A DNA stretch of 64,000 bases from Candidatus Cloacimonadales bacterium (lineage in GTDB: Bacteria > Cloacimonadota > Cloacimonadia > Cloacimonadales > JAIOQZ01). A program made the translations under genes and the position numbers. This document shows positions 13,503 to 60,827 of the stretch, piece by piece; within the stretch, counting starts at the first letter, position 1; the number at the start of each line of letters is the position of its first letter. The notes under the pieces are model-generated. The model was not told the origin of the DNA, made no database searches, and saw only the letters and a list, made by a program, of their open reading frames with translations. The DNA lies in assembly GCA_963662655.2 (NCBI GenBank), contig CAXXTU010000002.1, positions 3,040,001-3,104,000 of the forward strand, in the 5' to 3' direction.

Positions 13503-16500
13503 TTATTTCAGCATAACCATCTTCTTGACGGATACGTAGGTCTTCCCGTGGAGTGCGTAAACGTAAACACCCGTTCCAACCTGCTTGCCGGAGTCGTCTC
13601 TACCGTCCCATGAAATCTGATGCGGGCCTGCTTGCATTCGTGAAGAAGCAAGCGTTCGGACTTTCTGCCCAAGCGTGTTGTAGACTGTGAGATTCACATG
13701 CTGTTCCGTTGCCAGCTCGAAGCTGATAACGGTCGTCGGGTTGAATGGATTGGGGCATGCGCCGATAAGCCGCGTTGTGAATTCGGGCGTGCTGCTATCA
13801 TCGTTGGATACAATCTCCGCCTCGACGACATTCGAAGGATCCGATTCGGTTCCCCGATACATCGCCGTAACGCAGTAATGATAGACTCCCGCAGCCATAT
13901 CTTCATCGGTATAGGTGAGGGTCTCGCTGCCGGAGAGCTCCGCAATCATTTCATCTTCGCAATACACTCTGAAGCCAGTCAGGTCGTTGCGTGCAAGCGT
14001 CTTGGACGAAGAATCGTTCATTCGAAGGGCACGGTCGGACGGCATATCCCATGTGAGGATGATGTTGCAATTATCTTCGATATCAGCCGAAAGGTTCAAC
14101 GGAGGCATTGGGAGCCATATTGTGGCTTCCGCTTCGTTCGAAACCGGTGAATTGCCTTCTTCATAGGTTGCGGAGACCGTGTACAGGTACGTCCCGTTTG
14201 CAAGGCCTTCGTCGAGGTACTCGAGCGTCTCGGAATCTTCGATTTCGCTGATCAGTTCTTCATCGCGGTAGACCTTGTATCCCAGGACTTCGTCGGAGTC
14301 GCTTGGCGCGATCCATTGAAGCTGGACGTTGTTGCCGTTTTCCGAATGAGCGGTAAGCTCTGTGGGGGGGTACAACGACGGTGGAAGGATGATGTAATCG
14401 ATCCAGGCGCAGTCCTCGCCTTCCGTTGAGTTGTTGACCTTCAGGTAACGCCAGGCAATTGTATGTGCACCGTATGAGATCGGGAATGACGAGAAGCTCC
14501 AGTCGATTTCACCGTCCCAGCGTCCCATTTCTTCGTCGTCGATCAGGAAGACGAGCCTGTCCAGGTTGTCGTTCTCGTCGTCTTCGCATGAAACTTTCTT
14601 GGCGAAGGTCACTTCGCTTTCATACGGAATGTAGACATCGAGGCATAGTTCGGTGTAGAAGTATCCCGGGATCTCAGCGCTACGGGCCGAATAAGCGCCT
14701 TCCAGAGCTTGGGAATCGTCCACGTACCATGGAACCTGCGAGTTGTAGTACCATTCGAACATGGACAGATCGCCGCTCTCGAAGCTTTCGCTGGATTCGG
14801 CGAGCGTGGTGAATGTCCAGGTGTTGCCCTCGGTGTAGCCATGAACGTTAACGGCGTCGATTCGCCAGTAGTATTGTGTTCCGAACTCGAGCAGGCCGTC
14901 GAGGTTGTAGGACGTATCGGTGGTTTGTTCGCCGTTGAGGATGTTGGTGGGCGGGTATTCCGTTCCCAGATAGACCATGTAGTATTCGGCTGGATTCCCA
15001 CCGCCATCGTGCCACTGAATATCTGTTCCTGAGTGGGTGTAAACACATTCGTTTTCGGGAATCGGGTGGATCGGAGCGTAAGGCGGCATATCCGGGGGAG
15101 TTGTCGCTTCGACGGCCAGCAGGGCGTCAACCCGACCCGAGCCGTAGGTGTTGTCCTTCTCGTCCGTGATAACATAGCGGTTGTTCTCGAGGATCTGATC
15201 GATCTCTTCCGGCATGAGGTACTCGTTTTTATCCAGCATGAGTGCGATAACACCCGCGACGCACGGAGTCGCCATGGAGGTTCCGTCCCAGCCGTCGGCA
15301 TAGCCCGTATTGCTGCTGTAATCGAGTGATTTGATGTTTGCCCCCGGCGCAACGATATCGGGGCGTATCAGCCCGATTTCGACGACGTCGTTCGGCGTGT
15401 AGGGGTAATCCCCATAGGTATTGACATCTTCCCACGTACACGGACCACGGCTCGAGAAGTTCGCAATCGTGTTGCCGCTGTTGGTTGCGCCTACGCAAAC
15501 AACGCACGAGAGATCGCCCTCGAGCGTTTGATCGGGATGCAACCACGGAGGAGGGCAGCAACCGGGAACGCGTACGTTATGCGGAACCGGATACCAGCCT
15601 GTATAATCGCCTTCATTACCGGCAGCGACTGCTCCGGTAACGCCGGCTGCAAGCGTGTTGACCATCGTGTCGCGCCAGCTCTCATAATCGGGGTTGGAAC
15701 TGTCCGTCCAGCCAAGCGACATGCTAAATGCGTTCGCGCCGTGCTCTACGGCGAATTCGACCGCCTCCCATACATCGGATTCCTGGCCGTTTCCCGAACC
15801 TGTCAGAACCTTGAGGCACATAATGGTTGCATCGGGCGCCATGCCGGTTTGCGATCCGGAGGTTCCGTCGCCGGCTACAGTTCCCGCGCAGTGGGTTCCG
15901 TGACCGTTGTCGTCCATGGGATTCGTGTCGTTATTGGCAAAGTCGTAGCCGTGGTTCGGATAGTCTTCGTCTTCCCATACGTGATCCGAGAGGTCGGTGT
16001 GATTGTAGTTCACGCCGGTATCGATAACGGCGATGGTAATCCCCTCGCCGGTATATCCGAGATCCCACACCTGATGGGCGTTGACATTGGTGACGTTCCA
16101 GGTTATTTCCCGCTGACCGTCTACAATTCGCGAGTTCTGCCATTCGCGGGGATCAAGGAGATTCTGCTCGTTGTCCCAATCGATCCTGCGGATATCCGCG
16201 CGCCCGGCGAGCGATTCGATCGCTTCCGCCGTTGCGTCGCAAAGAATAACATTCGCAATCCACAGTGAGCGGACGTCGCTAACGTTTCCGCGGTTCGACA
16301 GGAGTGTTTGCTTGATTTCCCGCTGCGTGTAACTTGAAAAATTCTTCAATTCGTCAACAACGTATTGTCTCCGTTGCTGCACCGGTAAAGCTCTTGATTC
16401 GGCCAATAATTGTGCCGATGGCGTGCGCTCGGACAGCGCAATGATAATCGGAATCATTTCATCGGAAGAGGTTGAAAGCATCTTCTCTTGCAGTTCTGTG

Positions 16501-41238: not shown

Positions 41239-41428
41239 TCCGTCCTCTTTATGCGGTTCGATATATATTAACGTTTCGAGATCAGATGTATGTCCGTGTC
41301 TTTCGGCGTCAAGGAAATCGAAGAATTACCTGATGTAATGAGGCGGAATTGATAAGGTTAATATACAAATGATATAATTGGTGTGTTGGAAGAAGAGGTA
41401 GAGATTGTGTTATTTTGTGTCATCGACC

Positions 41429-41554
41429 GGCGTGGTATCTTCGCCCGATCTGCCGTGCAGACGGGGATATAACACGTCCCTGGGGCTATCGAGCGCAAAA
41501 ATGGGACGTGTAACACCCCGTCTGCACGGCAGATCGAACGAATCTACTCCCGCC
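41429..41554 (-). repeat. Dispersed long-hairpin repeat, copy 1
   Basis: Reverse complement GGCGGGAGTAGATTCGTTCGATC...GATCGGGCGAAGATACCACGCC matches copies at 55883 and 60640. Confidence 0.85.
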
Positions 41555-41572
41555 TCTACGGGAAGTTCCGAG

Positions 41573-55822: not shown

Positions 55823-55882
55823 CCGCTGTAACACGATTCCCCGAGTCAATAACCACCACATTCCCGAATCACTCCTTGCAAA

Positions 55883-56008
55883 GGCGGGAGCAGATTCGTT
55901 CGATCTGACGCGAGAACGTGGTGTTATGCACCTTATCATCTCGTTCGATAGCTCAAAGGTGCATTATATCCACGTTGGAGCGGCATGATCGGGCGAAGGT
56001 GCCACGCC
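55883..56008 (+). repeat. Dispersed long-hairpin repeat, copy 2
   Basis: GGCGGGAGCAGATTCGTTCGATC...GATCGGGCGAAGGTGCCACGCC. Confidence 0.85.
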
Positions 56009-56074
56009 GCAATCCAGTAGCACAATTTCAAATAAAAACATTGCCGAAAATACATCGCTCAAGAGAATGGAATT

Positions 56075-60472: not shown

Positions 60473-60572
60473 GGAAGAGGAAATCGGAGACGAATTGTCA
60501 CGCTGAGTTGCTTCTGTGACATCGGATATACCTAGTGTCTTTTTATATGTTGTGCTGGTCCCATTTTCGTTG

Positions 60573-60598
60573 TGTCATGCTGAGCGGAGTCGAAGCAT
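60573..60598 (+). repeat. REP-like short motif TGTCATGCTGAGCGGAGTCGAAGCAT
   Basis: Recalled resemblance to the 'GTCA..CTGAGCGGAGTCGAAG' extragenic repeat family; only one clear copy in the window. Confidence 0.45.
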
Positions 60599-60639
60599 AA
60601 AAAATCCCCCCCCCTCCAATTTAAAAGCGAGCCCTGATA

Positions 60640-60821
60640 GACGCGAGCAGATTCGTTCGATCGTCCGCGCAGGCGTGGTGTTGCACGTCGAAAATTCTGC
60701 TTTCGTGTAACGAAAACGATATCTTCGAACGAAAGTTTTTTGCGGAGCGAAATAACGAGAGTGGATTTATAGACGTGCTATATCCACGCTGGAGCGGAAG
60801 ATCGGGCGAAGATGCCGTGTC
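60640..60821 (+). repeat. Dispersed long-hairpin repeat, copy 3 (expanded apical loop)
   Basis: GACGCGAGCAGATTCGTTCGATC...GATCGGGCGAAGATGCCGTGTC. Confidence 0.85.
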
Positions 60822-60827
60822 GTTCGG

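Follow-up and report, generated by a model that had tools for sequence, protein, structure and literature searches.

A hairpin-forming sequence that occurs three times in a 64,000-nucleotide window of a Cloacimonadales genome raised the question of whether it is a structured RNA or a piece of DNA that moves, or is handled, as a hairpin. The original prediction, made from the letters of this window, had described three similar copies whose stems differ but stay paired, and had proposed either an unnamed structured non-coding RNA or a mobile or recombination element that is non-autonomous and served in trans. All three copies were found at the predicted places and were mutually alike. Copy 1 (41425..41559, minus strand) was a short form of 135 nt between divergent genes; it scored 134.2 bits against R1, the covariance model of the family, and 55.5 bits on the opposite strand. 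Copy 2 (55878..56012, plus strand; 121.9 bits) was also a short form of 135 nt and was flanked by two plus-strand genes. Copy 3 (60635..60825, plus strand; 112.7 bits with the full model) was a long form of 191 nt between convergent genes, with arms as in the short form and a larger apex, and it fell into a length class of ~180–190 nt. Opposite-strand R1 scores of the three copies were 43–56 bits. The predicted locations were thus correct, but the limits had been drawn too tightly, because an outer covarying stem (consensus GGCGNG...CNCGCC) adds ~10 nt on each side.

The two core motifs were located precisely in copy 1. The 5′ core, AGATTCGTTCGATC (41532..41545, minus strand), was identified by exact match, its column pairs being invariant or nearly so, and formed two U.G wobbles in pairing with the 3′ core, GATCGGGCGAAG (41439..41450, minus strand), which was assigned by exact match and pair counts. 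AGATTCGTTCGATC occurred exactly three times in the window, and GATCGGGCGAAG three times exactly and once with one mismatch (0.57 expected); in the window copies the two motifs always stood together on one strand. The intervening stems quoted in the original prediction were present and paired as described there. ORFs at the window copies had no coding potential common to the copies. Comparison of the whole window with Rfam 15, a check that had been proposed at the outset, gave nothing at gathering score, and around copy 1 the best match in E-value mode was AS-pc02 (14.9 bits, gathering score 40, E = 0.15), so that no Rfam family matched.

The description “three-copy” turned out to be true of the window only. 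The host genome (designated G000; 3.81 Mb in two contigs, 51% G+C, Cloacimonadales-type, 98.95% complete) contained 148 pairs in a loose search for the motif pair, and in an nhmmer search the profile built from 61 seed copies produced 171 hits, which were merged to 141 elements; the window copies were three of the 135 near full-length ones, and the remaining six were partial. The commonest length class was ~120–139 nt (86 copies), followed by ~170–189 nt (22 copies) and rarer forms of up to ~390 nt. Copies were dispersed as singles, about one per 27 kb, or stood as tail-to-tail pairs.

As had been suggested, a covariance model was built and run on relatives. R1 detected the hairpin repeat in 4/4 genomes of one genus (g1) and in 0/37 other genomes of the family and order; since 80 candidates were scored per genome in this survey, its copy counts are lower bounds. 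In the congener G001, where 150 candidates were scored, at least 31 matches to the model were obtained, as against 135 by nhmmer in G000. Scans with exact patterns found true members in three Cloacimonadales MAG records only (7 loci, 86–139 bits) and none in viral contigs; four genome loci from other phyla (12–17 bits) and six metagenome loci (up to 18.5 bits) were rejected as chance matches. These results indicated a range limited to a single genus of uncultured Cloacimonadales. In the portions of the literature on Cloacimonadota and REP, MITE or REPIN sequences that were accessible, no paper describing such a repeat was found.

Folding of 29 copies with RNAalifold gave one long hairpin of 43 pairs, of which 25 had compensatory changes. 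The covarying structure held in a larger alignment of 57 copies from four genomes, which was fitted to the model and so somewhat favours the structure: standard pairs made up 95.7% of 2420 pair cells, against 77.9% in shuffled alignments (0/500 shuffles reached the observed value), both sides had changed at 32/43 pairs, and the covariation score was 0.487 against 0.153. When the partners were slid by 1–3 columns, pairing fell to 31–45%. Some “compensatory” changes could come, with no selection involved, from templated correction inside quasi-palindromes. The long hairpin itself is real. Its basal stem was almost invariant, with two adjacent U.G wobbles (50/57 and 53/57 copies) and a tandem G.A; a third fixed wobble, G.U, lay at GGUGUU/UAUAUCC (54/57), and G.A/A.G and T.T occupied fixed positions in the arms. 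The stems between these conserved parts varied freely and remained paired, and the outer stem paired and covaried as well. The consensus began with CGAGGCGNGAGCAGATTCG... and ended with ...CGAAGATGCCNCGCCGGT.

The sense strand folded better than its complement, as predicted. Among 129 of the 135 copies (six without an anchor motif were dropped), it was the more stable in 128 with RNA parameters (mean −77.1 vs −62.7 kcal/mol) and in 122 with DNA parameters (−39.8 vs −35.6). Mismatches of arm against arm were of the G.T type in 674 cases and of the A.C type in 152 (364 vs 152 after removal of the three fixed positions), A.G/G.A outnumbered T.C/C.T (639 vs 173), and T.T outnumbered A.A (318 vs 82). 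One strand is the selected strand, and it is made the better folder by a fixed set of non-Watson-Crick pairs (two U.G or T.G wobbles, tandem G.A and T.T); the wobbles, the G.A loop and the T-T mismatch first seen in the window were family-wide features at fixed arm positions. Since G.U, tandem G.A and U.U are the pairs best tolerated by RNA, and since the mean RNA folding energy was as low as −77 kcal/mol, the copies might be cis-acting RNA in messengers, each a 3′-UTR hairpin that protects, ends or directs the cleavage of transcripts; some REP, ERIC and Correia elements act in this way. The same pairs, however, are also the most stable mismatches of DNA, and folding with DNA parameters likewise favours the sense strand. 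Because the same mismatches are mildest in both, this strand preference does not separate RNA from single-stranded DNA.

For orientation relative to replication, the origin of G000 was placed by the minimum of the cumulative GC skew (near 2.68 Mb; maximum near 0.78 Mb) and the densest DnaA-box cluster (2.76–2.78 Mb). The sense strand lay on the lagging strand in 96/130 chromosomal copies (p = 5e-8), and the lagging:leading ratios were 39:18 between convergent genes, 14:1 between divergent genes, 14:6 for tandem copies sense to the genes and 29:9 for tandem copies antisense to them. As the genes themselves were split nearly evenly between the strands (1527/2764 crude ORFs, or 55%, and 29/49 tRNA genes on the leading strand), their orientation cannot produce the bias of the copies, which was also present in convergent and divergent contexts; an explanation of the polarity as a by-product of gene orientation was therefore rejected. 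Another palindromic repeat of G000 (26 nt, 29 copies), used as a control, had no polarity (19:10, p = 0.14). The possibility that polarity is stronger in better-conserved copies was also rejected: lagging-strand shares by score class were 21/30, 25/30, 19/30 and 31/40, with no trend, the strand calls being less sure for the lowest-scoring copies, and the share among singletons was 88/114.

In G001, a single contig of 3.89 Mb in which the skew sampled in twenty 20-kb stretches was compared with the 31 model matches, the lagging strand carried 30/31 copies, including one near a skew switch. Fifteen copies of G000 stood where the local skew (5 kb) opposes the global one, and 13 of them followed the local skew, which would fit small inversions that carry an old polarity; their share (15/130) equalled that of intergenic sites generally (150/1388). 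Copy 1 of the window has its sense strand on the lagging strand, and copies 2 and 3 were among the skew-reversed exceptions; copy 2 belonged globally to the leading-strand minority, in a region whose local GC skew (5–10 kb) was weakly reversed (−0.009). For most copies the better-folding strand was thus shown directly to lie on the lagging strand, that is, on the leading-strand template.

Relative to the neighbouring genes, as called with a crude longest-ORF caller, orientation was inconsistent, and it tracked replication instead. Convergent genes flanked 59/135 copies, against 170/937 background gaps of more than 150 nt; 41 copies lay in tandem contexts antisense to the genes and 20 sense to them, against 521/937 for all tandem gaps, and 15 lay between divergent genes (background 246/937). 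The divergent, tandem and convergent contexts of the original prediction were therefore as described, and the counts over 135 copies bore out its view that the copies do not act consistently as 5′ cis-regulators. No gene was clearly interrupted: 17 overlaps with crude ORFs consisted of ORFs of 81–114 aa and one overlap at a 3′ end. At least one gene 3′ end adjoined 120/135 copies, at median distances of 25–46 nt. This closeness and the enrichment of convergent regions are what a hairpin acting in the 3′ ends of messengers would show. Only 20/61 tandem copies were sense to the genes, however, and this ratio of 20:41 does not suit action in cis on the upstream gene's messenger; moreover, 15 copies lay between divergent genes, replication set the orientation in every context and no T-run followed the hairpin. 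A cis-acting messenger RNA is accordingly thought improbable.

Alignment of the flanks revealed no conserved promoter, terminator or target motif, as hardly any information content was left outside the limits of −12 and +14 around the core motifs. This bears on a further reading, in which the copies are independently transcribed genes of a multi-copy structured small RNA. The strand-specific fold, the strong covariation and the lack of coding potential common to the copies agree with such genes, but the copies share neither promoter nor terminator, number ~140 diverged members with hypervariable apices, unlike known small RNA families, occupy positions that are not conserved between species, and are oriented by replication. 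We regard this reading as very improbable.

The apex was the most variable part of the hairpin. Most copies had a non-modular apex of one of several types (...GTTCGATAG..., ...GTCCGGTAG..., two pyrimidine-rich types and others). In copy 3 the apex module (60689..60771, plus strand) was recognised, by BLAST matches to arrays with a 73-nt period in G002 and G003, as one unit of a repeat with a period of ~73 nt. Long forms contained 1, 2 or 4 units of this 73-nt module, which forms hairpins by itself, and other copies contained none; the four tandem units were found inside another copy of G000. In contig C20 of G002, a stand-alone array of 7.5 nearly identical 73-nt units, without arms, lay directly behind a gene.

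Copies of G000 had a median pairwise identity of 74% and a maximum of 96.9%, and no two were identical; with no near-identical copies, the family gives the impression of being old and slow-moving in G000. Comparison with the congeners G001–G003 showed that positions are mostly not shared. None of 15 loci (1.5-kb flanks) with orthologues of the genes flanking the window copies carried a copy. Of 20 G001 copies, two had both flanks adjacent in G000, and a copy was present at both of these sites. A G000 copy lay within 400 nt of 11/39 mapped G001 flanks (9 sites), against ~3–4% expected from copy density, and at 6/9 of these shared sites its orientation relative to the conserved flank was opposite. 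At one fully syntenic site (L115 / C2:3037428), the copies that the two species carry behind the same gene end had opposite orientations and different apex types. In the single aligned pair that looks orthologous (L124 and C2:1194813), the copies were alike and their flanks could not be aligned, and the outer stem differed on both sides while pairing in each. Taken together, these results showed that favoured sites undergo turnover and that resident copies are constrained.

An empty-site comparison, which had been proposed earlier, gave the orthologous loci without a copy but no clean empty site, and the joints seen in contig comparison were partial mappings of other copies of the repeat. Copies were also considered as breakpoints of rearrangement, since 2/18 G001 sites were syntenic against 72/117 random sites; this was rejected, as the difference was weak against intergenic gaps (38/99, p = 0.03) and convergent gaps gave 3/17 (p = 0.66). 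No target-site duplication was detected in 129 copies at any boundary offset (best 3-mer 7/129, ~2 expected; best 4-mer 3/129, ~0.5 expected).

Constraint of this kind would also be expected of a DNA structural site selected by the host, now kept, however it came to spread, because a host protein of the nucleoid, a topoisomerase or a fork-associated factor uses hairpins in a replication-polar manner; REP and BIME sequences of enterobacteria have been proposed as host protein binding sites. The nearly invariant cores, the pairing kept among copies only ~74% alike, the absence of near-identical young copies, a polarity of 30/31 in G001 that does not rise with copy conservation, the conserved pair at L124 and C2:1194813 with its unalignable flanks, and the lack of a transposase found in G000 all suit such a site. 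Against it stand the mostly unshared positions (0/15 window-copy loci; 28/39 G001 flanks without a nearby G000 copy), a range of one genus, so that no general need is served, copy numbers that differ widely between congeners (135 by nhmmer in G000 and at least 31 model matches in G001), and the want of a known binding protein. A host-selected site thus seems possible but rather unlikely.

The original prediction had also advised a search for copies flanking a HUH/RAYT transposase or recombinase; none was found in G000 or at the Y1_Tnp loci of its relatives. In G000, Y1_Tnp (PF01797) had no match at E ≤ 0.01, IS110-type (DEDD) transposases had none, and TnpB gave sub-threshold matches only; Y2_Tnp also had no match, a weak negative as the control genomes were blank too. 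The best match to integron integrase (TIGR02249) was 67 bits against a cut-off of 265, and the tyrosine recombinases present were of generic type. In the relatives G001–G003, 0/12 loci with Y1_Tnp genes had a copy within ~3 kb, and such genes were also carried by genera without the hairpin repeat. A reverse transcriptase was discarded as a partner, being a single gene private to G000. Multi-copy genes of G000 were those of an ISL3 element (11 copies, with 8-bp AT-rich duplications) and an IS3-type element (8 copies); ISL3 was rejected as a parent, as its ends (GGCACTGTTGCA...) were unrelated to the hairpin repeat. Close pairs of copies enclosed 35 ordinary genes (thiamine synthesis, tRNA synthetase, UmuDC-like, helicase, phage terminase and others), none of them for a transposase, and a search of G000 for an autonomous parent with arms enclosing a gene yielded only fortuitous motif matches and a single mini-copy with an internal deletion.

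The hairpin repeat was then set beside known systems. ERIC (IRU) elements of enterobacteria are imperfect intergenic palindromes of ~127 nt, with longer variants made by internal insertions; they occur in both orientations relative to genes, and orientation-dependent effects on mRNA are possible. By description, the hairpin repeat is a similar imperfect intergenic palindrome, whereas ERIC belongs to another phylum and is usually discussed as transcribed, and we know of no replication polarity for it. The attC sites of integrons share with it a hairpin specific to a single strand, a conserved base, a variable centre that needs to pair and unpaired bases at set positions by which the strand is told apart. 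The attC strand that recombines in chromosomal integrons is on the leading-strand template, and the better-folding strand was found on that template here also. Unlike attC, however, the copies were dispersed, with no cassette arrays and no IntI, and R″/R′, the core motifs of attC, were absent from the consensus. A MITE seems unlikely as well: no target duplication was found, and the ends of ISL3 did not mark it as a parent IS; differences in presence and absence between genomes do occur.

In IS200/IS605 elements (PMC3971601), the folding strand is on the lagging-strand template, which gives a leading-strand orientation, and the fork sets orientation. The ends of these elements and of their gene-less derivatives (PATEs) resemble the hairpin repeat in being strand-specific DNA hairpins without target duplication and with a fork-set orientation. 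The better-folding strand of the hairpin repeat is placed oppositely, so that a simple copy of the IS200/IS605 mechanism does not fit; in addition, G000 had no TnpA or TnpB, and one long hairpin without a conserved flanking tetranucleotide takes the place of two small subterminal ones.

REPINs were the closest in kind. They too are hairpins of ~100–140 nt with hundreds of intergenic copies, conserved inverted arms and a covarying spacer, which is constrained only to pair and often carries compensatory changes (PMC3116915). In both cases the range is limited to certain lineages, target duplications are missing and action as single-stranded DNA is presumed. REP sequences are tagged by a GTAG or CGTC tetranucleotide at one end (PMC3733652), whereas the present consensus has no conserved GTAG or CGTC. 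The hairpin repeat also differs in its asymmetric arms with fixed wobbles and in the missing RAYT/Y1 gene in G000, with no copy adjoining the Y1 genes of relatives. It is replication-polar as a whole, and no polarity of REP or REPIN is stated in the sections of the REPIN literature available.

BOX elements of Streptococcus pneumoniae (PMC3049150) have the order boxA-(boxB)n-boxC, in which the terminal parts pair around variable tandem modules. Here, too, pairing arms enclose 0, 1, 2 or 4 self-folding units of 73 nt, and both families are intergenic, old and slow-moving, with an uncertain mobilising enzyme (PMC3049150). BOX belongs to another phylum, and no sequence kinship is expected; the mostly non-modular apices, the armless module arrays of G002 and the replication polarity set the hairpin repeat apart. 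On the best reading it belongs to a known kind, the interspersed hairpin repeats such as REPIN, BOX and ERIC, and in its working it is most like a REPIN whose apex is modular in the manner of BOX. It does not show the features that define REPIN, attC and IS200/IS605 derivatives, nor the target duplication of a MITE.

The strand-specific fold, the polarity in two genomes and the absence of a common transcription signal together suggest that the hairpin acts as single-stranded DNA tied to the fork. Our leading reading, held at about an even chance, is that it is a genus-restricted, non-autonomous mobile DNA element of ~135 nt, whose single-stranded DNA hairpin is handled at the fork by an enzyme acting in trans. 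The hairpin would then matter as DNA and not as RNA, and its spread or retention would be coupled to replication. A putative protein would recognise the basal stem (the duplex of AGATTCGTTCGATC and GATCGGGCGAAG, together with the G.A loop), and the remainder may only need to pair. Mobility is favoured by ~140 dispersed copies in one genus, at positions that differ between species and in an orientation that follows replication; the lack of a candidate enzyme, and of an empty site or target duplication to define the insertion, speaks against it. The near-invariant cores and intact pairing of old copies fit host selection on each copy as well as competence for transposition. Between these, transposition by an undescribed enzyme is preferred, with a probability near one half, over host use, to which we allot a rather small one. 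Of the two possibilities named in the original prediction, the evidence thus favours the mobile element over the non-coding RNA, with the enzyme acting in trans being inferred.

A more far-reaching proposal, offered tentatively and judged unlikely, is that the family represents a new replication-polar class of hairpin. Contrary to IS200/IS605, its single-stranded fold would be read either on the nascent lagging strand or on the leading-strand template. Its machinery would be none of HUH, TnpB, IS110 or integron; it might be a novel hairpin recombinase, or a host process at the fork that has recruited ~140 sites of chromosome architecture.

Repeats such as REP, REPIN, ERIC and BOX are common in bacteria, and for most families both movement and use by the host are still open. 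The present family belongs to an uncultured phylum found in anaerobic digesters, and its signals are unusually clean: old copies that are still paired, a fixed asymmetry and an orientation that follows the fork. Covariance model R1 lets annotators mask the copies and so avoid mistaken calls of riboswitches or small RNAs. In two genomes the sense of orientation is opposite to that of the one well-understood family of single-strand transposons. If this polarity reflects mechanism, it would point to an undescribed handling of DNA hairpins at the replication fork; if it reflects selection, the family would be a rare example of replication shaping a family of repeats.

Eight tail-to-tail pairs of the hairpin repeat (+ then −, with a spacing of 13–56 nt) were located on chromosomal contig C2 of the source genome (G000), at 13785/13949, 90000/90171, 414246/414430, 1230311/1230476, 2254768/2254950, 2349467/2349610, 2468381/2468542 and 3341170/3341333. 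Within every pair a canonical copy stood beside a low-scoring one, and the latter belonged, in at least three pairs, to a variant subfamily with a compensated change in the basal stem (AGATTGG...CCAAT/G). At C2:3426299, a mini-copy was detected with its 5′ and 3′ basal arms directly joined (...GCAGATTCGTTTGATGGGCGAAGATGCC...), the entire hairpin interior appearing to have been lost by deletion.

The 73-nt module found at the apex of long-form copies also occurred as a free-standing tandem array without hairpin arms (7.5 units, 99% alike, lying right after a stop codon). Stand-alone arrays were located in two other genomes of the genus, G002 (contig C20, at 469–1014 of locus L135, and contig C6, ~81569–81768) and G003 (contig C4, ~1157792–1157919). 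Four tandem units of the module were carried inside the G000 hairpin-repeat copy at C2:1736697.

Just upstream of copy 3, at 60570–60603 of the window, lay a short palindromic repeat distinct from the hairpin repeat, with a consensus of about TGTCATCCTGAGCGGAGTCGAAGGAT. It was present at 29 places on contig C2, where replication polarity was looked for among the copies and none was found (19:10). The relatives contained dozens of matches at 88–96%, frequently as inverted pairs ~40 nt apart.

Contig C2 also contained 11 near-identical copies of an ISL3-family insertion sequence (e.g. 1506285–1507520), with ends GGCACTGTTGCA... and 8-bp, AT-rich target duplications. Terminator T-runs were frequent landing sites of this element, and three of its copies lay 31–163 nt from a hairpin repeat. 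An IS3-type element was present in eight copies in G000.

Hairpin-repeat copies flanked a pair of genes (C2:834286–836419, locus L140), one UmuD-like (Peptidase_S24) and the other UmuC-like (IMS, Y-family polymerase), a placement that is probably coincidental. Upstream of the sole reverse-transcriptase gene of G000 (C2:981409–982605, locus L091) lay an ORF of 148 aa, with a TGA between the two, and downstream of it a LuxR/sigma-70-region-4-type gene; the reverse transcriptase was not found in a search of the family's other seven genomes.

Over the whole of G000, CTAG was nearly missing (observed/expected 0.05) and TTAA was also low (0.33), while TCGA (2.43) and GATC (1.97) were about twofold over expectation. 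Comparison of G000 with G001, another genome of the genus, showed ~70–85% nucleotide identity within genes and strong scrambling of gene order inside the genus: only 38 of 99 G001 intergenic junctions mapped to G000 were adjacent there, as were 3 of 17 convergent ones.
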